Source: Candidatus Velamenicoccus archaeovorus (GTDB lineage: Bacteria; Omnitrophota; Gorgyraeia; Velamenicoccales; Velamenicoccaceae). From it: a DNA stretch of 32,000 nt. Positions 1 to 25,810 of this stretch are shown here, one piece after another. The notes under the pieces are model-generated. The model searched no databases. It saw only the letters and a program-made list of their open reading frames with translations, and was not told where the DNA came from. The stretch is taken from assembly GCF_004102945.1 (NCBI RefSeq), contig NZ_CP019384.1, positions 630,001 to 662,000 of the forward strand, written 5' to 3'. Numbering within the stretch: the stretch's first letter is position 1; each line of letters opens with the position of its first letter. A program made the translations under genes and the position numbers.

Positions 1-690
1 CACTGGGATGACGAGCCTTTCGACGCCATCGTTTCCAATCCGCCGTATTCCATCAAATGGGAAGGTGACAGTAATACGCTTCTTATAAATGACCCGCGCT
101 TTTCACCGGCAGGAGTATTGGCGCCAAAGAGCAAGGCAGATCTTGCCTTCACCATGCATATGCTTTCTTGGCTTTCTACCAGCGGCACAGCGGCAATCGT
201 TGAATTTCCCGGAGTGTTGTATCGTGGAGGTGCTGAGCAGAAGATCCGCAAATATTTGGTTGATAACAACTACATCGATACCGTGATCCAGCTCCCACCT
301 GATCTTTTTTTTGGCACGACTATCGCTACCTGCATTATCGTGCTCAAAAAAAGCAAAAAGGATAACAAAACCCTGTTTATTGACGCTTCAGCCGAATTTG
401 TGCGCGGTGGAAACAAAAATAAGCTTACTGAAGAAAACCGCGCCAAAATAATGGAGGCGTTTACCAAGCGTGCAGACAAAGCGCATTTTGCCAAATTGGT
501 AAGCAACAAAACCATTGAAGAAGATGACTACAACATCACGGTCTCCAGTTATGTGTTGCAAAAAGATACCCGTGAGGTTGTTGATATCAAAAAACTCAAC
601 GCCGAGATCAAAGGCATCGTTGCACGGCAGAACGAACTCCGCACGGCAATTGATGAGATTGTAGCTGATATTGAGGGTAGCCATGACTAA
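1..690 (+). CDS. hsdM: Type I restriction-modification methyltransferase subunit M, C-terminal part (5' end outside window)
   Basis: Frame 1 is open from base 1. The translation [20 protein letters not shown] carries the N6-adenine MTase NPPY motif (bases 37-48) and continues into track ORF 118..690. The stop overlaps the hsdS start (ATGACTAA). hsdS and hsdR follow. Confidence 0.9.
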
Positions 691-1177
691 ACCCATGAAT
701 AAAATAGAAAAATTGATCGACAAGTTTTGTCCCAAGGGGATAGAGTTTAAGGAGTTGGGTGAAGTGTTAGATTATGAGCAGCCCACTAACTATCTTGTGC
801 AATCCACTGAATATGACGATGATTTTGTTACGCCAGTATTAACTGCTGGCCAAAGTTTTATTCTTGGTTATACAGACGAAAATGATGGAATATATAAAGC
901 GAGCAAAGAAAATCCCACTATTATTTTTGATGACTTCACTACATCATTTCATTGGGTTGATTTTGATTTCAAGGTTAAATCTTCGGCGATGAAAATGCTC
1001 CGACCCGAAAAGAGTGCCGATGTTATTTTTAAATTTATTTACTATGCGATGAAATGTATTGAGTACTCACCTCAAGACCATGCGCGTCATTGGATTTCTA
1101 AGTATTCAAAATTCAAAATCCCCATCCCACCTCTGCCGGTGCAAGAAGAAATCGTCCGCATTCTGGATAAGTTTACA

Positions 1178-1225
1178 GAACTAGAAGCAGAACTAGAAGC
1201 AGAACTAGAAGCAGAACTAGAAGCA
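1178..1225 (+). repeat. Four perfect tandem copies of the 12-bp unit GAACTAGAAGCA, encoding (ELEA)4 in the HsdS central spacer
   Basis: Counted directly in the sequence. The repeat is in frame with hsdS. Confidence 0.95.
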
Positions 1226-1276
1226 AGGAAGAAGCAGTATGAATATTATCGTACTGAACTGCTGACGTTCAACGAA

Positions 1277-1325
<49 letters not shown>

Positions 1326-1863
1326 GTAAGATGGGTAACACTAGGAGAAATAGGGAAGATTGTTAGGGGGACTGCCATTACAGCAAAGGAAGCGACAGGT
1401 GGAAAAATTCCGGTAGTTGCCAATGCGCCTAAAGCCATTTATTTTCATGGTAAAAGTAACAGAAGTGGAGAAACAATCGTTATTGCTAGATCTGGAGCTT
1501 ATGCTGGGTTAGTCAGTTTCTGGGATGAACCGATCTTCCTCACTGATGCATTCAGCGTTCATGTGGAGTCTACTTTGCTCAAAACCAAATTTGTTTATTA
1601 CTTATTGAAGCAAAAACAGGAAACTATCCACTTCATGAAGAAAGGTAGTGGAGTGCCGCATGTTCGAGCAAAAGAGTTTGAATCTTACCGTATCCCCATT
1701 CCTCCTGTCGCCGAACAAGAGCGCATTGTTACCATTCTCGATAAATTTGACACACTGGTAAATGATATTTCTGTCGGCTTACCGGCGGAAGTGAACGCCC
1801 GGCGCAAACAATACGAATACTACCGGGACAAGTTGCTTACTTTTAGTCCATTGGAAGAAGAAT

Positions 1864-4800
1864 ATGCCAAGCAATAAAAAATACAATTTAGTAGCGGAAA
1901 ACCCGCAAAGCACCGTGGTGGCGGAATATACACCTCAGTATCGTACCGCAAAGGCGTACCAGAGCGAGGCGGAACTGGAGCGCGCTTTTATTGAGCAGTT
2001 AGGATCACAGGCGTATGAGTATTTGTCCATTGCCTCTGAAACTGATCTCGTGCTTAATCTGCGCAAACAACTGGAAAAGCTGAATGATTTCACCTTTTCC
2101 GATGCGGAATGGGAGGCGTTTTTTGCCGAAGAGATCGCCAACCCTAATCAAAGTATTGCTGAAAAAACAGCCACTATTCAGGAAGACTACATTAAAAATC
2201 TAAAATGTGATGACGGAACGGTTAAGAATATCTATCTGTTCCGCAAAGACAAGATCCACGAAAACAATTTACAGGTGATCAATCAATACACCACCGAAGA
2301 AGGCCAAAGATCCAACCGCTATGATGTAACGGTGCTGGTCAATGGCTTACCGCTTGTGCATATTGAGCTTAAACGGCGCGGGGTGGCAATTCAGGAAGCG
2401 TTCAATCAGATTAACCGTTACCAACGTGAGAGTTTTTGGGCTGGCTCCGGGCTCTTTGAATATGTACAAGTTTTTGTCATCTCCAATGGCACGCATACCA
2501 AATACTACAGCAATACTACGCGCTCCGAACATATCAAAGAATCTATCGAAGGATCTGTTAAGAAAGGGAAACGCTCGAGCAACAGCTTTGAGTTTACCAG
2601 CTGGTGGGCAGACGCGACTAACAGACCCATTACAGATCTCGTAGATTTTGCCAAAACTTTTTTTGCCAAACACGTGCTTCTCAATATCCTTACCCGCTAC
2701 TGTGTGTTCACCGCTGAAAAACAGCTTTTAGTGATGCGGCCTTATCAGATCGTGGCGACAGAGAGGATATTGAGCAAAATCGAAGTCAGCACCAACTATA
2801 AAAAACTCGGCACTGTGGAGGCTGGCGGATATATCTGGCACACCACCGGATCGGGTAAAACCTTGACCAGTTTCAAGACAGCCCAACTGGTGAGCAAGCT
2901 GCCCTATGTTGACAAAGTGCTTTTTGTCGTTGACCGCAAAGACCTTGATTATCAAACCATGCGTGAATACGACAAGTTTGAAAAAGGCGCGGCTAACAGC
3001 AATACCAGTACGGCGATATTAAAACGTCAGCTTGAAGACTCAAATGCGCGTATTATTATCACCACAATTCAAAAACTTGACCGGTTTATAGGGCACAACA
3101 AGGGACACACAATTTTTAACGGCCACATAGTGCTGATTTTTGATGAATGCCACCGCTCGCAGTTTGGCGAGATGCACGCTGAGATTACTAAAGCGTTTAA
3201 AAGCTATCACCTTTTCGGTTTTACCGGCACGCCGATCTTTGCCGTGAATGCTTCTGCCGGTGGGCGTCCCGATTTTAAAACTACCGCGCAGGCTTTTGGC
3301 GATAAATTGCACACCTACACTATTGTGGACGCTATTGCCGACAGAAATGTTTTGCCGTTTAAGGTGGATTATGTTTCTACCGTGCGTGAAGCCGAGGATA
3401 TTGAAGATAAAAAAGTGCGTGACATCGACCGGGAAGCAGTGCTTGCCGCGCCGGAACGGCTGGCAAATATTGTGAAATATATCCGCGACCATTTTGACCA
3501 GAAAACCAAGCGAAACAGTTTTTACAAACTCAAAGACCGGAGACTATCGGGGTTCAACTCCATTTTTGCCGTTTCTTCCATCGACGCGGCCAAGAAATAC
3601 TACGCGGAATTTCAACGACAGTTAAAAGACGCGCCGAGTGATAAAAAACTGAAAATAGCGCTTATTTACAGCTTTGGCGTAAACGAGGAAGAAATTGACG
3701 GCGTGATAGATGAAAACTCCGAAGACACCAGCGGGCTGGACAAAAGCTCAAGAGATTTTCTTGAGAACGCCATCAAAGACTACAACGTCATGTTTGGGAC
3801 ATCCTACGACACTTCTTCTGATAAATTTCAGAATTACTATAAAGATGTCAGCGAACGCGTAAAGAATCGAGAAGTGGATATTCTGCTGGTGGTCAATATG
3901 TTTTTGACCGGCTTTGACGCAACTACGCTCAATACCTTATGGGTGGATAAGAATCTGCGCTTGCATGGTTTATTGCAGGCATATTCTCGCACAAATCGTA
4001 TTTTAAACACCGTCAAGACGTTCGGAAACATTGTTTGCTTTCGCAATTTGGAAAAAGCGACCAATGAATCCATTGCCCTCTTTGGCGATAAGGAAGCCAG
4101 CGGGATTGTGCTGTTAAAATCGTATGACGAATACTACAACGGCTACAAAGATGGCGACAAGGAAGTCCGTGGATATAAAAGTCTGGTTGAAGAGCTTTTA
4201 ACAAAATTTCCGGTTGGCGAGCGCATTGTTGGAGAACAAAATCAAAAGAGTTTTATCCGGCTGTATAGCGCGATTTTACGGGTGAGAAATATCTTGATTA
4301 CTTTTGACGAATTTAGCGGCAATGAAATTCTAACTGAGCGGGACCTTCAGGATTATCACAGCGTCTACATTGACCTTTACAACGAGTTTCGCAAGGCAGA
4401 CGAAGGCGAAAAGGAAAATATCAACGATGACATCGTGTTTGAAATGGAGTTAATTAAGCAAATTGAGATCAATATTGATTATATTTTGGGGCTTGTCAAA
4501 AAGTACCATGAAGATCATATCAAGAACCGTGAACTGCTTATCGACATTAACAAGGCAATCGACTCAAGCGTTGAACTGCGCAACAAAAAAGATCTCATCA
4601 ACCAGTTTATCGCTTCGCTTGATGCTCATTCGGTCGTGGATGAAGACTGGCAGAAGTATGTGGAGAAGAAAAAGATTGAGGAGCTGGAAGATATTATTAA
4701 ACATGAAAACCTTGATCACGACGAAACCTATAAATTTGTGCGAAATGCATTTCGTAACGGCAGTGTCGCAACCACAGGCACTGCTCTGGCAAAAGTTTTA

Positions 4801-4917
4801 CCGCCTGTATCGCGCTTTTCTCCCGGAGGAGAGCGTTCCAAGAAGCGCGAGAGCGTTCTGGATAAATTGACACGATTCTTTGAGCGATTTTTTGATATTT
4901 CTGATGGGAAGATTTAA
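1864..4917 (+). CDS. hsdR: Type I restriction enzyme R subunit (helicase/endonuclease)
   Basis: 1017-aa ORF overlapping the hsdS end. It has a Walker A motif (TTGSGKT) and a DEAD-box-like motif (FDECHRSQ). Its size and its position after hsdM and hsdS are typical. Confidence 0.95.
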
Positions 4918-5179
4918 AGATGACTTGGAGCTTTTGAAATGGCAGAATTGCCTTAGGCGAAAGGAAACCTCGGTAGATTCAAAATACCTCCTGCCTTTCT
5001 ATCGCCCTCTGGGTTGGGCGTGGTGGTGGAATTGATGGGGTTGGAGTTGATGGGGGCATACGGTAGCCTTCGGGCGGTGCGAAGAAACCGCCCCAAAAAA
5101 ACTCCCGTATGCCCGGGTGCGTAACGCGCTCATACATAAACAGGTTAACGGATGAAAGCCGTGTGATTGTAAAAAACGC

Positions 5180-5208
5180 TTGACAAATACTGTATTACGC
5201 TGTACGCT
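5180..5208 (+). promoter_or_regulatory. Candidate sigma70 promoter of the XRE gene (TTGACA-N17-TACGCT); the mRNA would be nearly leaderless
   Basis: TTGACA lies at 5180-5185 and TACGCT at 5203-5208. The ATG at 5218 has no Shine-Dalgarno sequence upstream. Confidence 0.4.
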
Positions 5209-5217
5209 TATAACTAC

Positions 5218-5589
5218 ATGAGTAACGAATTTGGGAAGAAGATAAAGCAGGAACGGCTTCATCTTGATTTAAGCCTTCGTAAAGTTTGCGAAGCCGTATT
5301 TAGTGACAAGAAAAAACCGATATCTGTATCATATCTTAATGATATCGAGCAGGGGTATCGGAATCCCCCCGATAGTAAAATAATTGTTCAACTAGCCAAA
5401 GTCCTAAAACTTGAGCCTCAAGATCTTTTGAATTTGGCGGGGAAGGTTCACCCTATTATTGAGGATGTAAGCAAGAAAACAGAAGTTGGCGTTCTCTTTC
5501 GGAAGATAGCTGAGCATATTGAACGCGATCCTGGATTCGCTGCAAAAATCCAGGAACAGCTTGATAAAAATAAGGATGATCAAAAATGA
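5218..5589 (+). CDS. XRE-family helix-turn-helix transcriptional regulator (CapH-like position)
   Basis: 123 aa. The N-terminal segment KIKQERLHLDLSLRKVCEAV...SYLNDIEQG looks like an HTH_XRE domain. Its stop overlaps the start of the downstream metallopeptidase gene (ATGA). Confidence 0.75.
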   Translation: MSNEFGKKIKQERLHLDLSLRKVCEAVFSDKKKPISVSYLNDIEQGYRNPPDSKIIVQLAKVLKLEPQDLLNLAGKVHPIIEDVSKKTEVGVLFRKIAEHIERDPGFAAKIQEQLDKNKDDQK

Positions 5590-6305
5590 TGCGATGGATT
5601 GACGATGATCAAAGTGTCTATGGCCGCCGGCTCATCGCTACAGGCATAGATATAGATGAGGCTATGGAAATAAAATATCTGGAATTTTTTAATGGTAAAT
5701 GTGACATTGATCATCCAGCCCTTGACATCGAGCGCTTTATAGATGAAAATTTGAGAAAAGATAACATTGAATTTGAACCGGAGGCGACTGAGTTACAACA
5801 TAATGCTTTGGGGGCTACAAAGTTTAACCCGGATGGATCTCGATTGATTCAAGTTAATGCCAAACTTTATCGGCAAAGGAATTCAACAGCGCTAAAAGGC
5901 CGTTTCAGGTTTACGTGCGCTCATGAAGTGTTCCATGCCTTATTTCATGATAAGCTTTTTCGTAGCGAGGGTCATTTGAAATGTTTCGAACATCATATTC
6001 AGGAAGATATGGTTGAACCAGAGAAAAAATCGAATGATTTCATCGAGTGGCAAGCTAACCGAGGAGCGGCGGCGTTGTTAATGCCAGGATCAATTTTTAA
6101 AGAAAACGTTAAGCGAATCCGCGCCATATCTCACGATCACGAATCGTTAGTGCGAGATTTAGCGTCTCGTTTTGATGTGTCTAGGCAATCGGCACTTATT
6201 CGGCTGCAGACGTTTCGATCCGTGGCTGTGCGCGAAGATGATTTCAATCTGGAAAATGACGGCATTGATAGTTACCAAGATGCCCGGAAAAGAACCTGGA
6301 ATTAG
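5586..6305 (+). CDS. ImmA/IrrE-family zinc metallopeptidase (CapP-like position)
   Basis: 239 aa with an HExxH motif (CAHEVFHALFH). It is translationally coupled to the XRE gene, which is the classic XRE plus ImmA/IrrE pairing. Confidence 0.8.
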   Translation: MMRWIDDDQSVYGRRLIATGIDIDEAMEIKYLEFFNGKCDIDHPALDIERFIDENLRKDNIEFEPEATELQHNALGATKFNPDGSRLIQVNAKLYRQRNSTALKGRFRFTCAHEVFHALFHDKLFRSEGHLKCFEHHIQEDMVEPEKKSNDFIEWQANRGAAALLMPGSIFKENVKRIRAISHDHESLVRDLASRFDVSRQSALIRLQTFRSVAVREDDFNLENDGIDSYQDARKRTWN

Positions 6306-6324
6306 GAAAATTTTTTTGATTAAA

Positions 6325-6345
6325 TTTTACGCAGTTAGCGTAAAA
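6325..6345. promoter_or_regulatory. Perfect 8-5-8 inverted repeat TTTTACGC-AGTTA-GCGTAAAA (candidate operator or RNA hairpin)
   Basis: Seen directly in the intergenic region between the ImmA-like gene and the DUF2188/Ubl operon. Confidence 0.35.
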
Positions 6346-6395
6346 GAACAATAACCTTAAACTAAGGAGACTTGTTAACATAAGAGGAGGAGTAA

Positions 6396-6629
6396 ATGGC
6401 AGAACGAAAACGAGTATGGGTTTCACCAGACGGTAAAGGCGGATGGGATGTTAAAACGCAAGGTGCCCAGCGGGCCGCCGGTAATTACGAGGACAAAACA
6501 GACGCATTATCAAAAGCAAAGGAGGTCGCGAAGAATGCACCCTTAGGACAGGTGGTTGTTCAAGGGCGAGATGGAAAAATCCAAACCGAATATACATATG
6601 GCAAAGACCCAGAGCGCTTCCCAGGTTAA
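6396..6629 (+). CDS. Small DUF2188-like protein
   Basis: 77 aa behind a strong RBS (AAGAGGAGGAG). The pattern WxV...GAQRAAGNYEDKTDALSKAKEVA...GRDGKIQTEYTYGKDP matches my memory of DUF2188. Confidence 0.6.
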   Translation: MAERKRVWVSPDGKGGWDVKTQGAQRAAGNYEDKTDALSKAKEVAKNAPLGQVVVQGRDGKIQTEYTYGKDPERFPG

Positions 6630-6659
6630 TACACAGGGCAACTGAAAGGAGAAAGAGTC

Positions 6660-6923
6660 ATGGAAAATCAAGGACAGGGACACAATAAGCAAGTCACGAT
6701 TATAGTAAATGCTCGCCCAGAAACGGTGGCGAAAGACGATATATCTTATAGTGAGGTTGTCGCTTTGGCCTTTCCGAATCCGCCAACCGGCGATAATGTT
6801 TCGTTTGTTGTTATGTACCGTAGGGGCCACGGCGATAAGACGCAAGGGACTCTTGTCCAAGGCCAAACAGTCAAGGTAAAGGAGGGGATGATATTTGATG
6901 TCTCACCAAATAATAAGTCGTAG
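6660..6923 (+). CDS. Multiubiquitin-type ubiquitin-like (beta-grasp) protein
   Basis: 87 aa with RBS GAAAGGAGAAAG. VTIIVNARPETVAKDDISYSEVVALAF...VSFVVMYRRG...GTLVQGQTVKVKEGMIFDV resembles the prokaryotic Multiubiquitin domain. It sits directly upstream of, and overlaps, the E2-E1 gene. Confidence 0.6.
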   Translation: MENQGQGHNKQVTIIVNARPETVAKDDISYSEVVALAFPNPPTGDNVSFVVMYRRGHGDKTQGTLVQGQTVKVKEGMIFDVSPNNKS

Positions 6924-8082
6924 TCCAGACCTTAAGCGACTTCGCGATGAAGGCTATGATATAGAGGTCAAGTCAGGATATCTTTTTATCAAGGATGTTC
7001 CATACGTCGATTCAGATAAGAAGATAGCGCGCGGCACCTTGGTATCAAAATTAACTGTAGCTGGGGACATGGCTGTGCCTCCTGATACCCATGTCGCTTA
7101 TTTTATTGGGGGGTCTCCGTGTGATGCGAATGGATCTCCTCTACAAAAAATTATCAACTCGAGCCAAAAACATAAGCTGGATAATGTTATCGAAGTTGAT
7201 CATACGTTTTCTGCGAAGCCTATGCCAGATGGAAAATATAAGGATAATTGTGATAAGGTAAAAAAATACATTGCTATGATTTCCGGTCACGCTCAGGCGG
7301 TAGATCCAAACGTAACGGCGGCAACCTTCCCAGCTTTGCCGACAACAGGAGAGGATAAATCATTCTTTAATTATATCGATAGCGCTTCTAGCAGAGCCCA
7401 GATCGGGGCGGCTACGAGCAAGTTGGAGATCGGCGGCATTGCAATCGTAGGAGTCGGTGGGACTGGTTCGTATATTTTGGATTTGGTGTCGAAAACTCCG
7501 GTAAGTGAGATTCACATTTTCGACAATGATAAGTTCCTGAATCACAACGCATTTAGAACGCCGGGTGCTCCTTCTATAGATGAATTGCGAAGGCAGCCCA
7601 AAAAGGTATTTTATTTGAGGGACATTTACTCAAGGATGCATCGGCATATTATTTCGCATGACGTTTATGTGGATGCGTCAAACGTAGATCTTCTTAAGCC
7701 AATGAAGTTCGTATTCATTTGCCTTGATAAAGGGGGCATAAAAAAGTGTATCGTTGAAAAGTTAGAAGAATGGGGTACTCCATTTATTGACGTCGGCATG
7801 GGCCTTCAGCTCGTTGACGAATCATTGACTGGTGTGCTTACCGTAACTGCCAGTACAATTGAGCAGCGCAAGCACATTAAAGATAGGATTTCTTTTTCAG
7901 AAGATAACGAAGGGAATGAGTATTCCCAAAACATACAAATCGCCGATTTGAACGCTCTTAATGCGGCTCTCGCTGTCGTCAAATGGAAGAAGATGTGTGG
8001 ATTTTATAAGGATCTTGAAAAAGAGTTCTTCTGTGCATATTCAGTGAACGGTAATACTCTAGTTAATGAAGACAAATCATGA
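6895..8082 (+). CDS. E2-like N-terminal domain fused to a ThiF/E1-type adenylyltransferase
   Basis: 395 aa. The C-terminal half has the E1 nucleotide-binding motif IAIVGVGGTGSYILDLV...IHIFDNDKFLNHNAFR. About 170 aa at the N-terminus are not E1. The multiubiquitin / ThiF / DUF6527 gene neighbourhood is a recognised trio. Confidence 0.75.
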   Translation: MMSHQIISRSPDLKRLRDEGYDIEVKSGYLFIKDVPYVDSDKKIARGTLVSKLTVAGDMAVPPDTHVAYFIGGSPCDANGSPLQKIINSSQKHKLDNVIEVDHTFSAKPMPDGKYKDNCDKVKKYIAMISGHAQAVDPNVTAATFPALPTTGEDKSFFNYIDSASSRAQIGAATSKLEIGGIAIVGVGGTGSYILDLVSKTPVSEIHIFDNDKFLNHNAFRTPGAPSIDELRRQPKKVFYLRDIYSRMHRHIISHDVYVDASNVDLLKPMKFVFICLDKGGIKKCIVEKLEEWGTPFIDVGMGLQLVDESLTGVLTVTASTIEQRKHIKDRISFSEDNEGNEYSQNIQIADLNALNAALAVVKWKKMCGFYKDLEKEFFCAYSVNGNTLVNEDKS

Positions 8083-8525
8083 AACGAACCAAAATATTAA
8101 CATATCGATTCCTTGAGTATATCCCTCGCGATATAGAGGAAGGGGTGATTTACATTTCAATGACATTTTCGACGGCGATTCATAAGTGCTGTTGTGGATG
8201 TGGTCAAGAGGTTGTAACTCCATTTGGCCGGACAGATTGGCAGTTGACTTTTGATGGCGAATCAATTTCACTGGATCCATCGATTGGAAATTGGAGTTTT
8301 GATTGTAAGTCACACTACTGGATAAGACATAATAAAATTATATGGGCACCTCGTTGGTCTAAGAAAAAAATTGATGCTAATAGGGCATACGATAAGCGGT
8401 TGAAGGATAGATATTTTATGGCTGTACAAGAGAAAGAGAATAGAAGTGATCGGAAGATAAGGCTTGCGGATTGGCTTGCTGAAAAGAATATATTGAAGCG
8501 GTTGAAAAACAATAGCTTAAGGTAA
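8079..8525 (+). CDS. DUF6527-like small protein (CxCGCG motif; candidate peptidase of the Ubl system)
   Basis: 148 aa, translationally coupled to the E1 gene (ATGA overlap). It contains HKCCCGCGQEV and the conserved-looking SIGNWSF.C.SHYWI. The family assignment is from memory. Confidence 0.5.
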   Translation: MKRTKILTYRFLEYIPRDIEEGVIYISMTFSTAIHKCCCGCGQEVVTPFGRTDWQLTFDGESISLDPSIGNWSFDCKSHYWIRHNKIIWAPRWSKKKIDANRAYDKRLKDRYFMAVQEKENRSDRKIRLADWLAEKNILKRLKNNSLR

Positions 8526-8647
8526 ATGTTTTAACAACAGAGATTCCTTCGCTCAGAATTTTTCGTTTTCGAAGTATCGAAAGATTTTGCTTAGAGAATA
8601 TTTCTTTCTTGATCTTGTAGTTTTTTTCTTGAGGCCGCAATAAGTAA

Positions 8648-8932
8648 GTCCTCCTTTCTTTTTCTTCGCCAAAAATACTCAATGCTTTAATTTCGTCAAC
8701 AAAATTCCGGAAATAATTCGTCTCCGTTCTTGTGGTCTGCCTCAAGAGCGGCTTCGCCCCTTCGGGGAGTCCTCAATTTTTTCCTCAGAATCCAAGAAGG
8801 TTCGTTCTCTCCCTCGTCGTTCTCTCTCCTTCGGCCAATCCTTGTTTTATTGACTAAACCGGCGCTTGTGGTCTGCCTCAAACGCCTTTAAAGGCCTTGA
8901 GTTCTCCTTTTTGGCGTAAAAGAAAGGAGGAC
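8648..8932 (+). ncRNA. Structured module A (285 nt): candidate cis-regulatory leader RNA or ssDNA-folding element upstream of the SpoVG-like gene
   Basis: The 15-nt GTCCTCCTTTCTTTT (8648-8662) is the exact reverse complement of AAAAGAAAGGAGGAC (8918-8932), which contains the SD. Further pairings are 8668-8675/8908-8915, 8677-8682/8897-8902 and 8691-8704/8845-8858. Internal hairpins at 8724-8751 and 8861-8886 both have the loop TGGTCTGCCT. Confidence 0.5.
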
Positions 8933-8935
8933 CAC

Positions 8936-9241
8936 ATGCGTCCAAAAGCAAAAAAACAGCAACAAAATCAGGAAAGGAAGGAGGTGAGCAAAATGTTCGA
9001 AGTCTCAAGGATCCATCGTATCGAAGGAAACGATACTCTGAAGGCCTTTGTGGACATCAAAGTCGCGGATTGCGTTTTGATCAAAGGCCTGAGAGTCATG
9101 GCGACCAAGGATGACACCTTGTTTGTCGCCATGCCGTCTCAGAAGGCGGAGGATGGCAAATACTATCCTACCGTCAAGCCTCTTTCCAAAGAGGCGAATC
9201 AAGAGCTGCAGGACGCAGTTCTTGCTGCCTATAACGAATAG
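8936..9241 (+). CDS. SpoVG-family protein (alternative start at 8993)
   Basis: MFEVSRIHRIEGNDTLKAFVDIKVADCVLIKGLRVMATKDDTLFVAMPSQKAEDGKYYPTVKPLSKEANQELQDAVLAAY aligns by eye with SpoVG. Both the ATG at 8936 (AAGGAGG upstream) and the ATG at 8993 (GGAAGGAGGTGA upstream) have strong RBSs. Confidence 0.75.
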   Translation: MRPKAKKQQQNQERKEVSKMFEVSRIHRIEGNDTLKAFVDIKVADCVLIKGLRVMATKDDTLFVAMPSQKAEDGKYYPTVKPLSKEANQELQDAVLAAYNE

Positions 9242-9290
9242 GCAGTAAAAAAAGCTGCGCTATCGGCTAGACGGGCAAAAATAAAAAATC

Positions 9291-9316
9291 GATCCCCGGC
9301 CAGGGGATCTTTTTTT
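9291..9316 (+). terminator. Intrinsic terminator after the SpoVG-like gene
   Basis: Stem GATCCCC / GGGGATC with loop GGCCA, followed by T7. An A-run precedes the stem. Confidence 0.7.
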
Positions 9317-9413
9317 GTGCCTGGCGCGGCTATCACCGTTTGCCGATCAGCCTCAACACCTTCCTTTCTGTCTCTTTTGTTGTTTTTTTTCTGATTTTTC
9401 AAGCGCCGGCTTC

Positions 9414-9701
9414 GTCTCCTTTCTGTTTGTTTTCGCTTTTCTAACCTTAAGCCCTGATTTTCGTCAATAAAATCACGAAAATAATTCGTCTCCGCTTTTG
9501 TGGTTTGCCTCAAAAGCGGCTTCGCCCCTTCGGGGAGTCCTCAATTTTTTTCGTGACCCAGGAAGACTCTCTCACTTCATCCGTCGTTCGTTCGTCTTCG
9601 GGCATACCTGTTTTTTTTGACCAAAACCGCCGGTTGTGGTCTGCCTCAACCGGCTTCAGGAGCTTAGGTCAAGACTTTTTCAGCGAAAACAGAAAGGAGA
9701 C
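9414..9701 (+). ncRNA. Structured module B (288 nt), paralogue of module A, upstream of the 94-aa ORF
   Basis: GTCTCCTTTCTGTTT (9414-9428) is the exact reverse complement of AAACAGAAAGGAGAC (9687-9701), which contains the SD. Hairpins at 9492-9519 (loop TGGTTTGCCT) and 9629-9654 (loop TGGTCTGCCT). A block of about 90 nt (9458-9548) is nearly identical to 8691-8779. Confidence 0.5.
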
Positions 9702-9707
9702 CAAGCC

Positions 9708-9992
9708 ATGAAAAACATGAACAAAAAAGAAAACGAGCAAAAATTCGACGAAGGGGTGTTGAGGGCTGACGGCTGCATGATGAGGCATAACCAGTCGCGT
9801 CAGGCAGAATTCCGTACGCAGGAAGAGGATTTTCCTGAGCATTCTTTCGGTAAGTCCGCGTACTGGGAAGAAAGAAGACTGCTTAACCGCGTCCATACGC
9901 TCAAGGCCATGGGTTTCAAGATCAGGCCTGAACAGACGCTCGAAGAGTTCGTCCAGGCGCATGAGGACGCGTTCACCGAGGACGTCCTATGA
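9708..9992 (+). CDS. Hypothetical protein (94 aa)
   Basis: The ATG at 9708 follows GAAAGGAGA. It is the first gene after module B and is coupled to the next ORF (ATGA overlap). No recognisable domain. Confidence 0.55.
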   Translation: MKNMNKKENEQKFDEGVLRADGCMMRHNQSRQAEFRTQEEDFPEHSFGKSAYWEERRLLNRVHTLKAMGFKIRPEQTLEEFVQAHEDAFTEDVL

Positions 9993-15969: not shown

Positions 15970-18585
<2,616 letters not shown>

Positions 18586-18610
18586 ACCGGATGTAAAAAA
18601 AGGGAGAATA

Positions 18611-18976
18611 ATGGTCGACAATGCGAAGAATTCCAAGGCTTATGAATCGGCATTTGATACGGCGATGGAAGTATTTTGGCTGACTAAAGAATATCCCAAG
18701 GAAGAGTTGTGTTCGTTGGCGGATCAGCTCAGAACGGCTTCCAGGTCTGTGGCGGTCAGCATAAGAGAGGGTCTCGTAAAAAAGCCGCATTACAGGGATA
18801 TTTTTGTAAGGCATGTGATCGATGCTTTGGGTTTTTGTGAAGAGACAAAAACGTGGCTTGATTTTTCCTTCGAGTGCAGATATCTGGGGCGGGATAAATA
18901 CGGCGAGTTGTCCAGGAAATACGACGAGATAAGGATCATGCTGTATCAATCCCTCGGCAGGAATCCTCGGCTTTAA
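18611..18976 (+). CDS. Four-helix-bundle protein (23S rRNA intervening-sequence protein family)
   Basis: From the ATG at 18611: AYESAFDTAMEVFWLTKEYPKEELCSLADQLRTASRSVAVSIREG... This is the typical family pattern (fPkeE..L..QlrRA..Si..NIaEG). Confidence 0.75.
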   Translation: MVDNAKNSKAYESAFDTAMEVFWLTKEYPKEELCSLADQLRTASRSVAVSIREGLVKKPHYRDIFVRHVIDALGFCEETKTWLDFSFECRYLGRDKYGELSRKYDEIRIMLYQSLGRNPRL

Positions 18977-19114
18977 AGCCGAGGAGAAATGCGGTATTGC
19001 CTCGGGAGGGAACCCCCAGGGGATTCCACTTGGTCAAAAATTGGAAGAAATGGTGAAGGCGTGATCCGGCAGGGAGCTCCGGAGATACGAAAAACAACTC
19101 AAGGAACGAAAGAC

Positions 19115-20716
19115 ATGTGTAAAACAAACAACGCAATCCCAACGCTCTTGAGGGCCAAGCATTTTAAGCCCGGCTTGAAATGTCTTTCGGGTTTCTTTTT
19201 GCTTTTGGGATTCTGTTGTTTGTTTTCTCCGCCCGCGCACGCCAACAACATCAAGGTCTCCGACGTCAGCCTCCAGAACCTGGATTCTACCGCGGGCACG
19301 GTGGACATCAAGTTCGACGTCTCCTGGGACAACAGCTTCACCCGCACGGACGCAAACGGCAACGCCACCTTTGACCGGGCCTGGGTCTTCGTCAAATACC
19401 AGATCGGCGGCACAGGAGCCTGGTATCACGCCACGCTTGTCTCAGGAGGTTCCCTGGGCAGCTACTCCACATCCACCGCTATCGGCATCACCTCGGACGG
19501 CAAGGGGGCGTTTTGCCGGCCGGGTCTTAATCAAACACTAAGGTGGAGTTTCCCCTATGGAACGTCGATGGATACCATCAGGATCAGGGTTTTTGCCATC
19601 GAAATGGTCTACATCCCCCAGGGCTCTTTTGTCCTGGGTTCCGGCGGAACGGAATCAGGCAGCTTTACGGACGGCTCATGGACGAGTGGAGCAACTATTC
19701 CCTTTACCATTTCTTCAGAAGATGCGCTATCCATAGCCGCGAGTGCAGGCAGTCTTTGGGGAACATCTACCTCCGGCAACAATACCATCGGTGACGCTGG
19801 GACTCTTCCCGCCGCCTTCCCCAAGGGCTACAGCGGCTTCTACGTGATGAAGTACGAGGTCTCTCAGGGGCAATACCGGGACTTCCTGAATACCCTGACC
19901 CGTGCCCAGCAGAACACCAGGACCGGAACCTCCCTGGCTGCGGGCACGACATCCGTCACCAACATCTACGTCATGAGCAACACGGCGACCATATCCTATC
20001 GCAACGGCATCCGCTGCGACGCGACCATCTCGTCCTCGGACCCGATCACTTTTTACTGCGACCTGAACGGCAATGCCGTTCCCAACGAATCCGATGACGG
20101 CGAGTGGATCGCCTGCAACTGGCTCTCCTGGGCGGACCTGATGGCCTATGCCGACTGGGCGGGCCTGCGCCCCATGACGGAGCTGGAATTCGAAAAGGCC
20201 TCGCGAGGCCCGGCCCGTTCAGGCTCGCCGACAGCCAACGAATACGCCTGGGGGAACACGACCATTGATTACTTCTCCGATCTTTCCAATGCAGGCACCT
20301 CAAGCGAGGCCATAGGCCCGACCCGGCCCAATGCCAACTGCAACTATTCCAGCGCCTCGCCCGACGGCCCGGTCCGCTGCGGCATGTTTGCCACAAGCTC
20401 ATCGAGCCGCACCACGGCAGGCGCTTCTTATTACGGCCTGATGGAAATGTCCGGCAACCTCTGGGAGAGGTGCGTCACCATCGGCAATGCCACAGGCCGC
20501 GCCTTCACAGGCTTGCACGGCAACGGCACCCTTGACTCCAGCGGCAACGCCGATGTTACAAACTGGCCTGGAACAGGCGCCACTGGTGGCGGTTTCCGCG
20601 GCGGCGCTTGGGATGATGACACATCGTACGCCCGCGTGTCAGACCGCAGCTACGCGGCGTACACGAATTCGTTTCGGTACTACAGTTACGGAGGTCGGTT
20701 CGCCAGGACCCCTTGA
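19115..20716 (+). CDS. DGR target protein 1: secreted FGE-sulfatase / C-type-lectin-fold protein with C-terminal VR
   Basis: The ATG at 19115 (start uncertain) gives the hydrophobic leader ...FFLLLGFCCLFSPPAHA. YVMKYEVSQGQYRDFLNTL and ...YYGLMEMSGNLWERCV are the FGE-sulfatase (DUF323) pattern. VR1 encodes the last 42 aa. Confidence 0.85.
   Translation: MCKTNNAIPTLLRAKHFKPGLKCLSGFFLLLGFCCLFSPPAHANNIKVSDVSLQNLDSTAGTVDIKFDVSWDNSFTRTDANGNATFDRAWVFVKYQIGGTGAWYHATLVSGGSLGSYSTSTAIGITSDGKGAFCRPGLNQTLRWSFPYGTSMDTIRIRVFAIEMVYIPQGSFVLGSGGTESGSFTDGSWTSGATIPFTISSEDALSIAASAGSLWGTSTSGNNTIGDAGTLPAAFPKGYSGFYVMKYEVSQGQYRDFLNTLTRAQQNTRTGTSLAAGTTSVTNIYVMSNTATISYRNGIRCDATISSSDPITFYCDLNGNAVPNESDDGEWIACNWLSWADLMAYADWAGLRPMTELEFEKASRGPARSGSPTANEYAWGNTTIDYFSDLSNAGTSSEAIGPTRPNANCNYSSASPDGPVRCGMFATSSSSRTTAGASYYGLMEMSGNLWERCVTIGNATGRAFTGLHGNGTLDSSGNADVTNWPGTGATGGGFRGGAWDDDTSYARVSDRSYAAYTNSFRYYSYGGRFARTP
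20588..20714 (+). repeat. DGR variable repeat VR1
   Basis: In my manual alignment to the TR it is the same length with about 16 differences, all at TR adenines (for example AAC->TAC/AGC and AAT->GAT/GCT/TTT). Confidence 0.9.
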
Positions 20717-20820
20717 TTTTTTGTTCTTTTACACTTTGGGGTTTTTGGGGGAATTAGTGGGTAAGCCGGTGAACAGGTTAGCCGGTGAATCGGTGAAATG
20801 AATAAACCAGAAAAGAAGGT

Positions 20821-21240
20821 ATGGGAAAGGTAACCCCAGTTGTGGAGAAGCACTACAGGCTGATTTTATGGACATTGCCCAAAATTGCCAACTTTCCAAA
20901 AGACCAAAGATTCCTGTTGGCCGACAGGATCGAGACGCTGCTTTTGGATGTGCTTCTGCTCTTGATCGAGGCGACATATTCGGCGGAGAAGAGGGAAATG
21001 CTGAAGAACGCCAATTTGAAAGTCGAGCAGATGAGATTTATGATGCGCATCGCCAAGGACATGGAATACGTGAATATCAAAGGTTATGACTTTTTCTGCG
21101 TTTCGCTTCTTGAAATAGGCAGGATGATAGGGGGTTGGAGAAAATCCGAGGAGGATAAACAAAACCAGAGTCCTTGTGTTCACGGATACAAGGAGCGGTC
21201 ACCGAAAGAAAGGGGTCCAGACGTCGTCACCTGTCCTTGA
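20821..21240 (+). CDS. avd: DGR accessory variability determinant (Avd), four-helix-bundle protein
   Basis: 139 aa. LPKIANFPKDQRFLLADRIETLLLDVL...IGRMIGGWRKS resembles bAvd. It lies immediately upstream of the TR and RT. Confidence 0.8.
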   Translation: MGKVTPVVEKHYRLILWTLPKIANFPKDQRFLLADRIETLLLDVLLLLIEATYSAEKREMLKNANLKVEQMRFMMRIAKDMEYVNIKGYDFFCVSLLEIGRMIGGWRKSEEDKQNQSPCVHGYKERSPKERGPDVVTCP

Positions 21241-21348
21241 CTTTTGTACAAGGTCGAGGCAAAAAGAGTTCGCCTGCCGCGCGGGAAAGCGGAACGCTTG
21301 CGGCGCGGCGAGGGTTGTAAAAAGGTGCGAGGTCGTAAAGCGTTGTCC

Positions 21349-21475
21349 GGCGGTTTCCGCGGCGGCAATTGGAATAATGACACATCGAACGCCCGCGTAT
21401 CAGACCGCAACAACGCGGCGAACACGAATTCGAATCGGAACAACAATAACGGAGGTCGGTTCGCCAAGACCCCTT
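21349..21475 (+). repeat. DGR template repeat (TR), adenine-rich with many AAC/AAT codons
   Basis: It translates as GGFRGGNWNNDTSNARVSDRNNAANTNSNRNNNNGGRFAKTP. It is homologous to VR1 and VR2 and sits 40 nt upstream of the RT start. Confidence 0.9.
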
Positions 21476-21514
21476 ACTTTCTCCTTATGGATCTTCAGCT
21501 AAGGCGAGGGAAAG

Positions 21515-22672
21515 ATGAAGAAAATTGAGAATATCTACACAAAAATCTGTTCCGTCGAAAACCTGTATGCCGCCGCAGCCATGGCGGCCAAGGGCAGACG
21601 GTATCGTGATTCGACGGCCGACTTTACCTTCCGTCTCGAGGCGGAGATCAACCGCCTGAAGAAGCAGTTGGAAAACGGGACGTACAGGCATGGGGCTTAC
21701 CGTGTTTTTGTCATTCACGACCCCAAGGAACGGCTGATCTCGGCGGCGCCCTTCCGCGACAGGGTCGTCCACCATGCCGTCCACGACGTCATTGAACCGC
21801 TTCTGGACAGGACGTTCGTTTACGATTCTTACGCCTGCCGCAAGACAAAGGGGACCCACAAGGCCGTTGACAGGGCGCAATCTTTCTTGAGGCTGAATAA
21901 ATTCTGCCTGCATTGCGACGTCAAAAAATATTTTCAATCCATCGACCACAACATATTGAAAGGGGTGCTGGCGCGCTGCATCGGCGACGCCAAAACCCTT
22001 GCGCTCCTGGATACCATCATTGATTCATCGGCGTATTTGGCCAATGTTTCTGCGGGGAACCGGATCGCAGGGCTGCCCATCGGGAACCTGACGTCCCAGT
22101 TTTTCGCAAACCTTTATCTCAATGAGCTGGATTATTACGTAAAGGTTTCCCTGAGGTGCCGTTATTACCTCAGATATATGGATGATTTTCTCGTTTTCGG
22201 CAACGACAGGGGCGCGCTTGAAGAAATCAAGGACCGGATCAGGGAGTTTTTAAGAAATAAATTGAACGTTGCCCTTCACGAGGGAAAATCCCAGGTTTTC
22301 GCAACCAAGAGGGGGATCAAGTTTCTGGGGTTCCGGATCTATAAGGATTTCAGAAGGCTGGCGACGGGAAATGTCAAGCGTTTCAAAAGGCGGCTCAAGC
22401 GGTTTCATTATTTGCTTGAAAAAGGCGAAACAGGCAGGGAAAAAGTCCGCGATTCGGTCAGGTGCTGGACGGCGCACAGCCTTTACGCCAATACGCACGG
22501 TCTGCGGTCGAGGATGGTCGTTGATTTGATGAAAAAAGACGCAAATTTCGGAGAAGGTCTTAAGGATATTTTGCTGCCTGTCGGCGGTCGTAGAGATGAC
22601 GAGCGAAGCCGGGAAGCGGCTAGGTTGAAGGAGAGAAGTGATGCGCGAGAATTCAGTTCTTTGCATCAATAG
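21515..22672 (+). CDS. DGR reverse transcriptase
   Basis: 385 aa with the RT catalytic motif YMDDFLVFG and the DGR-typical GLPIGNLTSQFFANLYL. Confidence 0.95.
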   Translation: MKKIENIYTKICSVENLYAAAAMAAKGRRYRDSTADFTFRLEAEINRLKKQLENGTYRHGAYRVFVIHDPKERLISAAPFRDRVVHHAVHDVIEPLLDRTFVYDSYACRKTKGTHKAVDRAQSFLRLNKFCLHCDVKKYFQSIDHNILKGVLARCIGDAKTLALLDTIIDSSAYLANVSAGNRIAGLPIGNLTSQFFANLYLNELDYYVKVSLRCRYYLRYMDDFLVFGNDRGALEEIKDRIREFLRNKLNVALHEGKSQVFATKRGIKFLGFRIYKDFRRLATGNVKRFKRRLKRFHYLLEKGETGREKVRDSVRCWTAHSLYANTHGLRSRMVVDLMKKDANFGEGLKDILLPVGGRRDDERSREAARLKERSDAREFSSLHQ

Positions 22673-22716
22673 CACAAGGCGGTTCGTTCCCGATCGGGTG
22701 CTGATGACCCGCGCGC

Positions 22717-22737
22717 GGGGGGGGGGGGGGGGGGGGG
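22717..22737 (+). repeat. Homopolymeric G21 tract
   Basis: Counted directly. It lies 45 nt after the RT stop and about 195 nt upstream of the target-2 start. Confidence 0.9.
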
Positions 22738-22930
22738 ATTGTCAGTTGCCAGCGTAGGACAGTCTCTGTTGCGCAATCTTGCGAGCGGTGCGTTTTCAAG
22801 AAAAGATGCAGGATTCACCAGGGGCCTAAAGGACAAAGGCACCGGTCGAAAGGCGGACGGGTGAACCGATAAACCGGTTAACCGGCTGACCGGCTCATAG
22901 GCAAACCGGGTAAGGTAACAAGGAATAGAT

Positions 22931-24484: not shown

Positions 24485-24725
24485 TTTTTTGTTCTTTTAC
24501 ACTTTGGGGTTTTTGGGGGAAGAACGAGCGGGTAAGCCGGTGAACAGGTGGAGTGCGTGGTTCGTTGTTCGTGGTTCGTTCACGAGCAACAGCGAACACG
24601 AGACGAACCACGAGGCAAGAACGACGAGGAACGAGCTGACGTGGAATACGCTGTTCGTGGTTCGTTGTTCGGGATTCGTTTACGAACAACGAGGAACGAA
24701 ACGCGAGGCAGGAGAAGGAACGAAG

Positions 24726-25115
24726 ATGATAAAAAGCTACCGGGATTTAGACGTTTGGCAAAAAGGAATGGGGCTGGTTGAGACAGCGTACCAAATAACC
24801 GGAAAATTCCCCAAAGGAGAGCTCTTTGGGTTAACGAATCAACTGAGGCGTTCATCCGTGTCTATACCATCGAACATTGCGGAAGGGTTCCTGCGGCAGC
24901 ATGCGAACGAGATGATACAATTTTTGTATATAGCCTTGGGATCTTGTGGAGAACTAGATACGCAGACAGAGATCTCTTATCGGTTGAGGTATATCACAGA
25001 GAACCAAAAGAATCTCTTGAGCGAAGATGTTGATCATATTGCACGCATGATTCGCAATTTAATAAAGAGTTTGCGCAACCGAACCACGAAACACGAGGAA
25101 CGAACAACGAGCTGA
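24726..25115 (+). CDS. Four-helix-bundle protein (23S rRNA IVS protein family)
   Basis: From the ATG at 24726: MIKSYRDLDVWQKGMGLVETAYQITGKFPKGELFGLTNQLRRSSVSIPSNIAEG...LGSCGELDTQ, a canonical family pattern. The upstream part of track ORF 24255.. is out-of-frame read-through of VR2. Confidence 0.85.
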   Translation: MIKSYRDLDVWQKGMGLVETAYQITGKFPKGELFGLTNQLRRSSVSIPSNIAEGFLRQHANEMIQFLYIALGSCGELDTQTEISYRLRYITENQKNLLSEDVDHIARMIRNLIKSLRNRTTKHEERTTS

Positions 25116-25171: not shown

Positions 25172-25384
25172 TTAGGCCGGTTGAAGGTTTTCCAATTTCA
25201 CCTGAGGCCGCTTATGCTCCAGAATGTATTTGCTGGCGTCGAGTATTTCAATGCCAACGACAGATCCGTCGGGAGCATAGTTAATGGCGATGTCTTCCGT
25301 AATTCGCTGCGTGGTCACCTGGAACCTGCCCTTTTTGAGCCTGATATACGCGGCATCTACCTTGGAGTCATAACTGATTTTCAT
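25172..25384 (-). CDS. DUF2283-like small protein (putative antitoxin partner)
   Basis: 70 aa. YDSKVDAAYIRL...DGSVVGIEILDAS is the DUF2283 pattern. It lies 9 nt downstream of the DUF4258-like gene. Confidence 0.7.
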   Translation of the reverse strand: MKISYDSKVDAAYIRLKKGRFQVTTQRITEDIAINYAPDGSVVGIEILDASKYILEHKRPQVKLENLQPA

Positions 25385-25393
25385 CGTGGCCTC

Positions 25394-25645
25394 CTAAAAA
25401 TAAAAAACGTAAACTGTGACGACAATAACGGATTTTTCTTCTTTGACTATGGGCATGACTTGTTTGACGCGGTAAAACTTGCCGCCCCAGTCTCCGTTAT
25501 GCTGAAAATTATGGCGATAACTCATGCGGCCGTGTTTAGCTGGAATTCTTTCGCCATGACGGATTGTTTGAATAATTTCTTCTCTGGAAGCGCCGCGTTC
25601 CAGCATCTGCTTTAGCGCGTGGTCCGAAAAGATGATGTGTTTCAT
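25394..25645 (-). CDS. DUF4258-like small protein (putative toxin)
   Basis: 83 aa. FSDHALKQMLERGASREEIIQTI...VVTVY resembles DUF4258. It is paired with the DUF2283-like gene. Confidence 0.65.
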   Translation of the reverse strand: MKHIIFSDHALKQMLERGASREEIIQTIRHGERIPAKHGRMSYRHNFQHNGDWGGKFYRVKQVMPIVKEEKSVIVVTVYVFYF

Positions 25646-25810
25646 GTTTCAATATTATCATTGCAGTTCAGGAAGTCAAGAAAGAATAATGATGAGAGAG
25701 ATGAACGGGTTAGCGGGTGGAGTGCGTGGTTCGGGGTTCGTGGTTCGTTCACGAACGACAGCGAACACGAGACGAACCACGAAACACGAGGAACGAACAA
25801 CGAGCTGACG

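Follow-up and report, generated by a model that had tools for sequence, protein, structure and literature searches.

Results

Two paralogous modules fold into branched hairpins in front of gene starts

The genome of Candidatus Velamenicoccus archaeovorus, an uncultivated predatory bacterium of the phylum Omnitrophota, contains two related elements, here called modules A and B, which immediately precede the ATG codons at 8936 and 9708, respectively, of a 32-kb window, the whole stretch of DNA analyzed in this work (Table 1). Module A lies in front of a gene for a SpoVG-like protein, and module B lies in front of an operon whose first gene encodes a 94-amino-acid (aa) protein. An earlier note on this DNA had described the two as paralogous, and they are indeed 82% identical over ~320 nucleotides (nt), including a 35-nt identical core. 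The arms of P1, the helix that closes module A (8648-8662 and 8918-8932), proved to be exact reverse complements of each other, as had been claimed, and the closing helix of module B turned out to be longer than reported, with 20 of 21 positions paired (95%) between 9408-9428 and 9687-9707.

All of the inner pairings listed in the earlier note were present as well. In module A, 8668-8675/8908-8915 and 8677-8682/8897-8902 pair perfectly and 8691-8704/8845-8858 pairs at 12 of 14 positions, and module B contains the inner pairing CCTTAAGC/GCTTAGG. Two loop-conserved hairpins were found in each module, the second of which branches off the right arm; four instances of the hairpin TTG-TGGTYTGCCT-CAA were counted in the window, compared with 0.02 expected by chance. 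Hairpin 1 is enclosed, together with a CCCC-TTCG-GGGG hairpin, by the stem P5. In every module type, a conserved T-rich flank that carries the motif CCTTTCTTG precedes the closing helix by 35 to 45 nt (8604-8647 and 9362-9407 in the window); this flank could be an alternative pairing partner for the Shine-Dalgarno region instead of the left arm.

The stability of the folds was judged against shuffled sequences, and no shuffle was as good in any case. Folded as single-stranded DNA, the minus strand yielded -55.9 and -76.5 kcal/mol (z of -6.5 for module A and -7.9 for module B), and the plus strand reached z values of -6.2 and -9.7, respectively; as RNA, the plus strand reached -6.0 and -7.0. 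The same branched structure was thereby obtained from either strand, under DNA and RNA parameter sets alike, with z between -6 and -10, and module B ranks among the most structured 300-nt stretches of the window.

The fold is conserved and covaries in a small family of homologues

Homologues were gathered by scanning for the sequence pattern, by nhmmer, and by inspecting the surroundings of SpoVG homologues; 185,579 species, each represented by one genome, were included in the genome scan, and the JGI collection was used for the metagenome scan. The resulting family comprises 15 full and 2 partial copies of about six sequence types (related loci are given below by their labels, such as L001). 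The genome scan matched only two genomes, and the metagenome pattern scan returned 25 loci, of which 4 (L013, L014, L018, and L026) held true copies and the remainder were unrelated repeats containing GGTATGCCTCAA. All copies have the same orientation and lie immediately 5' of a gene start, the gene being SpoVG-like, a homologue of the 94-aa gene, or, behind the partial copy in L032, the gene that follows DUF932. One copy (L039:1776-2189) carries three conserved-top hairpins on its right arm rather than one, and a 414-nt variant of the module is therefore tolerated.

Outside this family, the searches returned nothing related. The whole window had no Rfam match at gathering thresholds, and at E-value thresholds the region 8500-9800 had chance-level matches only, all far below the gathering threshold. 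Neither blastn (word size 11) against 72,556 plasmids of PLSDB nor two pattern scans and an nhmmer search of viral contigs produced a match to the region or a true copy, respectively.

A consensus fold of 90 pairs was derived from the individual folds of both strands and counted in the 15 copies. Across these, 86% of the cells were paired, compared with at most 63% when the partners were slid. The covariation that the earlier note had anticipated was found: 26 pairs were changed on both sides, compared with 16.4 ± 2.2 in shuffles, none of 500 of which reached the observed number, with the caveats that the consensus was drawn from the same sequences and that the alignment of P1 to P3 between types is imperfect. 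The double-changed pairs included 6 of 14 in outer P5, 4 of 7 in hairpin 1, and 3 of 9 in hairpin 2, and the hairpin stems varied from 7 to 16 bp in length among copies while the top, T-GG-NNTG-CC-T, remained constant. Furthermore, the pairing of a left arm was strongest with a right arm of matching type (about -40 to -52 kcal/mol) and weaker across types (-15 to -30 kcal/mol), and B-type copies showed compensatory changes between the Shine-Dalgarno sequence and the ATG. Collectively, these data revealed that the module fold is real and under selection.

A promoter-like site recurs in register on the minus strand of the left arm

Both strands of the 15 copies were scanned for sigma-70-like sites. 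A single promoter-like site recurred at a fixed position in every copy; it is located in the left arm, on the minus strand, with TTGACG, TTGAAA, TTGATA, or T(T)GCACA as the -35 hexamer, a spacer of 16 to 18 nt, and TATTTT, TATTGT, TACAAA, or TAGAAA as the -10 hexamer. Ten copies scored 8 to 9 of 12, their -10 having both A2 and T6. The hexamers that the earlier note had read in module A (TTGACG at 8699-8694 and, after a 16-nt spacer, TATTTT at 8677-8672) were recovered, and the -10 of module B, which it had called weak, is TAGAAA, at an 18-nt spacer and lacking the final T.

The order of elements on the base-directed arm was conserved and runs from P5 through the -35, the spacer, the -10, a GCG helix, and the internal loop to the closing helix. 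Within this conserved geometry, the -35 pairs with a TTGAC that is invariant on the other arm; hairpin 2 exits the spacer on the opposite (template) side, 4 to 6 nt past the -35; and the -10 has one to three unpaired bases and is followed by a conserved GCG helix of 3 to 4 bp. A 4-nt internal loop lies at the expected start, in front of the 15- to 21-bp closing helix. Since the minus-strand position of P5 is just upstream of the -35, this stem may have an UP-element-like role. The hexamers aim into the gene only in the folded minus strand and face leftward in duplex DNA. A transcript from the predicted start would begin with an A and carry a leader of ~20 nt with a very strong Shine-Dalgarno sequence, AAAGGAGG. 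No plus-strand promoter was conserved within 150 nt upstream in any module type.

We also asked which strand folds. Under RNA parameters the minus strand was the more stable in 15 of 15 copies, with shuffles biased alike by 4 to 10 kcal/mol, and the L031 type alone clearly exceeded this shuffle bias. Under DNA parameters the minus strand was 5 to 7 kcal/mol better, with a baseline difference of ~4 in shuffles. Single mismatches within Watson-Crick helices, read on the plus strand, were mostly pyrimidine-pyrimidine, with 10 G:T and 21 A:C; because a plus-strand A:C is a minus-strand G:T, the mismatch types lean weakly to the minus strand.

Table 1. Coordinates of the modules, their parts, and the genes that they precede
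Feature	Position	Strand	Description	Measure or remark
T-rich conserved flank	8604..8647		Contains motif CTTTCTTG	Upstream of P1, module A
Module A	8648..8932		Branched hairpin: closing helix P1, stems P2-P5, four side hairpins	z -6.0 to -6.5
P1 left arm, module A	8648..8662		GTCCTCCTTTCTTTT; anti-Shine-Dalgarno mimic	100% complementary to 8918-8932
4-nt conserved internal loop, module A	8663..8666	-	Predicted transcription start	Transcript predicted from about 8916, plus strand
-10-like TATTTT, module A	8672..8677	-	16 nt after the -35	Second base (A) unpaired
-35-like TTGACG, module A	8694..8699	-	Paired in the fold with invariant TTGAC of right arm (8850-8854)	
P5	8707..8783		A/T-rich duplex, invariant sequence GGAAATAATT / AATTTTTTCC	Helix 6: 6/14 pairs double-changed
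Hairpin 1, module A	8724..8751		Conserved top T-GG-TCTG-CC-T; covarying stem	Helix 8: 4/7 pairs double-changed
Hairpin 2, module A	8861..8886		Top as in hairpin 1; branches from right arm within promoter spacer	Helix 13
P1 right arm, module A	8918..8932	+	AAAAGAAAGGAGGAC; holds Shine-Dalgarno sequence	Stops 3 nt short of ATG 8936
SpoVG-like gene	8936..9241	+	101 aa; served by module A	PF04026, E = 4.6e-20
Bidirectional intrinsic terminator	9291..9316		Separates the two units	Precedes unit B
Module B	9408..9707		Paralogue of module A	z -7.0 to -9.7
-10-like TAGAAA, module B	9438..9443	-	Weak; 18-nt spacer; without final T	Missed by stricter scan
-35-like TTGACG, module B	9462..9467	-		
Hairpin 1, module B	9492..9519			
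Hairpin 2, module B	9629..9654			
94-aa gene	9708..9992	+	First gene of module B operon	

Module A marks the border of a variable defense-gene region

The genes from 118 to 25615 are all on the plus strand. From the left, they comprise a type I restriction-modification system; HTH, ImmA, and DUF2188 genes; and a ubiquitin-like defense cassette (Multi_ubiq, DUF6791-ThiF, and DUF6527). These are followed by module A with the SpoVG-like gene, the bidirectional terminator, and module B with its operon, to the right of which lie genes for a response regulator, Fic, and DUF2341 and a diversity-generating retroelement. The module B operon continues after the 94-aa gene with a 60-aa gene, DUF6876, a 79-aa gene, a 264-aa gene, ThiF, and JAB and extends to 13080. 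Related contigs retain the block rightward from module A at 80 to 95% protein identity. To the left of module A, the window (1-8525) has the restriction-modification system and the ubiquitin-like cassette; L002 (1518-8000) has Gabija-like genes (OLD-TOPRIM plus UvrD) and a NACHT gene; L001 (1-6429) has a MORC-like ATPase and a D12 methylase; and L037 (1-9800) has an AAA ATPase and an S8 protease with IS110. Because the left region differs and the right block is conserved, module A lies at the edge of a variable defense-gene hotspot.

The 94-aa protein had only 8 homologues, all from close relatives, and a comparison of the eight downstream proteins with PHROGs gave weak ThiF matches only. A tblastn search of plasmids with the SpoVG-like protein found canonical chromosomal-type SpoVG only. 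The SpoVG-like gene itself has two in-frame ATGs (8936 and 8990, within 8936-8992), both of which follow a strong Shine-Dalgarno sequence; the intervening 18 codons are rich in Lys and Gln and show DNA-level conservation in homologues, some of which are annotated as 82 to 83 aa. DUF6876 was present on 96 plasmids, 68 of which were typed as conjugative or mobilizable, and on one of these plasmids the gene adjoins a large ParB-like gene near mobC. The earlier note had further called the neighboring genes PRTRC-like in the sense of conjugative elements, and this did not hold at the level of family assignment: the JAB protein scored 22 bits against NCBIfam PRTRC_A, for which the cut-off is 101.8, and this was the sole match among PRTRC_A to PRTRC_F. 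The cassette is therefore PRTRC-like only, as it combines ThiF, JAB, and a small beta-grasp-like protein and misses the cut-offs.

Further features of the window were noted in passing. The specificity gene of the restriction-modification system (118-4917, plus strand) is split into open reading frames (ORFs) 671-1366 and 1563-1877. The block at 5218-8525 (plus strand), with HTH, ImmA/M78, DUF2188, and then Multi_ubiq, DUF6791-ThiF, and DUF6527, resembles Bil-type or 6E-type anti-phage systems and was also found in L018. The diversity-generating retroelement (18530-25115, plus strand), conserved in L026 and L037, comprises FGE-sulfatase-fold targets (18989-20716 and 22931-24484), bAvd (20821-21240), a reverse transcriptase (21515-22672), and two 23S-rRNA-IVP/bAvd-like genes. 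Two overlapping small ORFs (70 and 83 aa) at 25172-25645 on the minus strand are toxin-antitoxin-like and constitute the only clear minus-strand genes of the window. From 25616 to 32000 (plus strand) a frame of at least 2128 aa remains open to the window end and probably represents the beginning of a giant gene; very long proteins are a known trait of Ca. V. archaeovorus.

A second class of hairpin precedes ardA in related islands

SpoVG homologues with ~60% identity lie directly after ardA in L028, L030, and L036 and before DUF932 in L032 and L034. The region upstream of ardA in L028 (7536-7693) and L036 (1349-1517) forms a different hairpin of ~165 nt, with z values of -4.1 and -3.5, respectively, at the base of which the ardA Shine-Dalgarno sequence is paired with an upstream copy of its complement. 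The 3' (base-directed) arm of its minus strand has an extended -10, TGGTATAAT or TGGTACAAT, in a bubble of 15 to 16 nt; such a -10 is missing from the other arm, which in duplex DNA would belong to the plus strand. The ardA/DUF932 context and this second hairpin class lend independent support to a single-strand promoter model.

Discussion

A tentative model of single-strand promoters with a built-in lock

In the Frpo and ssi hairpins, -35, -10, and UP elements are reconstituted, and leading-region genes such as ssb, psiB, and ardA are thereby expressed before complementary-strand synthesis (PMC11541004, PMC9849209, PMC12672017). Plasmid F has two copies, Frpo1 and Frpo2, which are 92% identical, and pESBL has six promoters of three unrelated classes, the starts of which were mapped by 5' rapid amplification of cDNA ends (PMC9849209, PMC12672017). 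Frpo also primes DNA synthesis, and the ssp2 hairpin of F is a replication roadblock (PMC12672017; bioRxiv 10.64898/2026.01.09.698686). In the F sequence (L042), the Frpo2/Frpo1 repeat (6016-6622/11404-12012) spans ~600 nt at 77 to 95% identity, about twice the length of the ~315-nt hairpin. The leading-region genes of F are transcribed toward oriT, with DUF932 under Frpo1, and the transferred strand is therefore their template. By our own reading of the boxes, the hairpin of the F antirestriction gene has TTGCAT...TAAGAT on its base-directed arm; TAAGAT, the -10, falls within a bubble of the transferred strand's 3' arm, and about 19 bp of duplex come next. By analogy, this appears to be the same geometry as that proposed for the modules. 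The earlier note had called the modules Frpo-like, and at the level of sequence this kinship was not borne out: blastn and nhmmer found no homology to F Frpo, the blastn search of plasmids gave no similarity to ColIb-P9 ssi sequences either, and the module profile had no nhmmer match in the F leading region at an E value of ≤10.

A second precedent is EGeRS1 of the pLS20-family Bacillus plasmids (Val-Calvo et al. 2021), a repeated, branched element with a core of about 325 nt that directly precedes the ribosome-binding sites in establishment operons, including that of an antirestriction gene (PMC8708921), and that closely resembles the modules. It contains no duplex-DNA promoter in either orientation and blocks expression from an upstream promoter in its native orientation only, by an unexplained mechanism (PMC8708921).

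The earlier note had offered two models, a leader RNA and a single-strand DNA promoter, of which the latter gained specific support. The leader model agrees with the same fold in RNA and is at odds with the lack of a conserved plus-strand promoter upstream. The single-strand promoter model agrees with the in-register site, the loop at the start, the missing upstream promoter, and the ardA/DUF932 loci and is at odds with the lack of transfer genes. We tentatively favor the view that the modules are a new family of single-strand DNA promoters, the downstream duplex of which doubles as a Shine-Dalgarno/anti-Shine-Dalgarno lock on read-through RNA. They would work in the manner of Frpo/ssi of F and ColIb-P9 and belong to an unrelated sequence family.

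In the proposed mechanism, the island would become transiently single-stranded, and the minus strand of the window, which is the template for all these genes, would fold. The 3' arm of the fold, i.e., the complement of the left arm, would supply the non-template strand of a sigma-70-type promoter in the order P5, TTGACG, a paired spacer of 16 to 18 nt, TATTTT or TATTGT with unpaired flanks, the 4-nt start loop, and the closing helix, whose 15 to 21 bp would serve as the downstream duplex; hairpin 2 would protrude from the template side of the spacer. RNA polymerase would then initiate about 20 nt upstream of the ATG, and the mRNA would be translated, since it would contain the Shine-Dalgarno sequence and lack the left arm. 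Complementary-strand synthesis would abolish the hairpin and leave the hexamers pointing away from the gene. Any RNA reading through the whole module would refold and bury the Shine-Dalgarno sequence, and the genes would consequently be silent in the established state.

Several observations weigh against reading the modules as single-strand promoters. We know of no precedent for a three-way junction, such as that of hairpin 2, on the template side of a promoter spacer, and the energy preference for the minus strand is mirrored by shuffles. The five B-type copies (winB, L013b, L002b, L037b, and relatives) have TAGAAA or TACAAA, in which T6 is absent, at an 18-nt spacer, and a stricter promoter tool made no call on them. 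The conserved CTTTCTTG flank upstream of P1 is not accounted for by a promoter, and the most conserved part of the module is the apical domain with the hairpin tops GG-NNTG-CC, the conservation of which goes beyond what a scaffold requires. When F Frpo1/2 served as a positive control for a simple hexamer scan, no clear promoter was recovered; because none was recovered in Frpo2, the scan is a non-validated detector. The Frpo2 hairpin of F (~315 nt, z of -6.7) moreover ends 47 nt before the ssb ATG, with the Shine-Dalgarno sequence outside. As for the conjugative context seen in the earlier note, the plasmid-borne occurrence of DUF6876 speaks for it and the lack of a transfer apparatus against it: no relaxase, oriT, type IV secretion system, coupling protein, or SSB gene was recognizable in the window, and the related loci likewise showed none of these, with coverage extending to 10 kb left and right in L037 and to the L001, L002, and L028 flanks. 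Our literature search found no documentation of conjugation in Omnitrophota. Finally, the authors of the EGeRS1 study rejected a single-strand promoter for their element on the ground that it is the non-template strand that is transferred (PMC8708921).

Alternative explanations

The modules might instead act purely at the RNA level, as cis-acting leaders analogous to EGeRS1 that hide the Shine-Dalgarno sequence in P1 until a trans factor opens it, a possibility that we regard as serious and still rather unlikely. Such a leader would be transcribed from a farther-upstream promoter or by read-through; the hairpin tops would be candidate binding sites, and the neighboring SpoVG-like nucleic-acid-binding protein would be a candidate trans factor. 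The RNA fold is highly significant, P1 is an exact Shine-Dalgarno/anti-Shine-Dalgarno duplex that reaches to 0 to 3 nt from the ATG and is backed by the compensatory changes of the B type, and the loops and apical domain are conserved in sequence, as a binding site would be. A cUUCGg-type tetraloop on the plus strand, plus-strand G:U pairs in some copies, and the constant presence of a SpoVG-like gene among the matches obtained from the DNA pattern alone all fit a leader, and the behavior of EGeRS1 provides a precedent (PMC8708921). However, no plus-strand promoter is conserved upstream, and a terminator stands directly before the flank of unit B. A leader would likewise not account for the in-register minus-strand -35/-10 with a loop at the predicted start, it has no Rfam match, and plus-strand A:C mismatches exceed G:U. 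A single-strand promoter and an RNA leader may also be two faces of one device. In a hybrid of this kind, which would include the shorter ardA hairpins and which we consider conceivable though improbable, the downstream duplex would be the Shine-Dalgarno/anti-Shine-Dalgarno pair and expression would be licensed twice: transcription would proceed solely from folded single-stranded DNA and translation solely from transcripts with hairpin-internal starts.

The remaining explanations fit the data less well. That the Shine-Dalgarno sequence of the following gene is part of every closing helix, which stops 0 to 7 nt short of the ATG, and that two copies lie 770 bp apart, each before a gene, makes it quite unlikely that the modules are single-strand origins or priming signals, in which folding would bring RNA polymerase or primase to the strand for a complementary-strand primer, or would possibly form a roadblock to duplex conversion, with gene expression secondary or absent. 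The conserved-loop hairpin does recall the CS-6 loop, and ssoA-type origins have a hairpin with such a loop; the CS-6 motif TAGCGT/A was absent from both strands of 8600-9720, and no Rep or relaxase gene lies nearby. An ssoA-type origin was rejected on the absence of this motif. In favor of priming, Frpo itself primes DNA synthesis and F ssp2 acts as a roadblock (PMC12672017; bioRxiv 10.64898/2026.01.09.698686). An ordinary duplex-DNA promoter firing left, with antisense or divergent RNA and an inverted repeat that is incidental or an operator, would match the leftward direction of the hexamers in duplex DNA and the conservation of about 45 nt left of P1. Beyond these 45 nt, the left flanks are unrelated among loci, with no conserved leftward ORF and no terminator in that direction, and neither the 26 covarying pairs nor the burial of the Shine-Dalgarno sequence would be accounted for; we judge such a promoter to be very improbable. 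One candidate leftward ORF was rejected, as its TTG start in the window is CTG in L001 and an early stop occurs in L002. The earlier note had named as a refuting case a miniature inverted-repeat transposable element with the arms as terminal inverted repeats. The inverted-repeat ends and the two copies recall such an element, and yet we hold it to be barely credible: the window has only these two copies, none is dispersed or at an unrelated locus, viral contigs gave no matches, only two genomes of the 185,579 species matched, each copy has the same position and orientation before a gene start, and the arms contain the Shine-Dalgarno sequence.

Significance

To our knowledge, experimental demonstrations of single-strand DNA promoters come only from the IncF and IncI plasmids of enterobacteria. 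For other mobile elements, little is known of how genes for establishment and anti-defense are transiently switched on, and for EGeRS1 the question is explicitly open. What the modules offer, in a phylum without known conjugation, is an element that is conserved and covaries, has a readable promoter geometry, and contains a putative built-in translational lock; module A marks the border of a variable defense-gene hotspot. Their signature of sequence and structure could be used to find entry-phase genes in uncultivated bacteria, including that of the SpoVG-like protein and several of unknown function. If the hybrid of promoter and leader is true, promoters of zygotic induction would extend to uncultivated bacteria of the Omnitrophota type and to islands without recognizable conjugation genes, these islands would have an undescribed single-stranded DNA entry route, and there would be a testable mechanism for the unexplained EGeRS1-type elements.

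Comparison with known systems

With RNA leaders that sequester the Shine-Dalgarno sequence (riboswitches, RNA thermometers, and protein-dependent leaders), the modules share a long-range Shine-Dalgarno/anti-Shine-Dalgarno helix within a covarying, conserved fold. Unlike such leaders, they have no Rfam match and no conserved upstream promoter, measure ~290 nt, and carry an in-register promoter-like site on the opposite strand. Like the ssoA-type origins of rolling-circle plasmids and integrative and conjugative elements, they would present folded single-stranded DNA to RNA polymerase and have a conserved-loop hairpin, but they lack CS-6, are tied to gene starts, and have no Rep or relaxase gene nearby. 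EGeRS1, which we compared by description only, is also repeated, branched, and located at ribosome-binding sites, and the helix that buries the Shine-Dalgarno sequence in the modules would likewise block read-through expression. In contrast to the modules, EGeRS1 is longer (420 to 750 bp) and GC-rich, and its authors found no promoter in the fold, whereas a promoter-like site is visible in the modules.

The modules are also close to the class 1 single-strand DNA promoters, which comprise Frpo1 and Frpo2 of F and ssi1-3 of ColIb-P9/pESBL. Sequence similarity is lacking, and the modules are multi-branched, with a spacer hairpin and conserved tops; their closing helix includes the Shine-Dalgarno sequence and ends at the ATG, unlike F Frpo2; no oriT, relaxase, or SSB gene lies nearby; and they occur in Omnitrophota and related uncultivated lineages rather than in Enterobacteria and are known here from sequence alone. 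Nevertheless, like Frpo/ssi (PMC9849209, PMC11541004, PMC12672017), a module would form an imperfect hairpin of ~300 nt in the template strand with the hexamers on the base-directed stem arm. Unpaired -10 bases and co-oriented genes are shared with Frpo/ssi and with the class 2 and 3 promoters of pESBL and F, and several paralogous copies each stand before an operon, as in Frpo/ssi, where the known operons serve establishment and anti-defense (ardA, DUF932, ssb, and psiB). The modules lie outside the Frpo sequence family and, if the mechanism holds, represent a new form of that kind of device.

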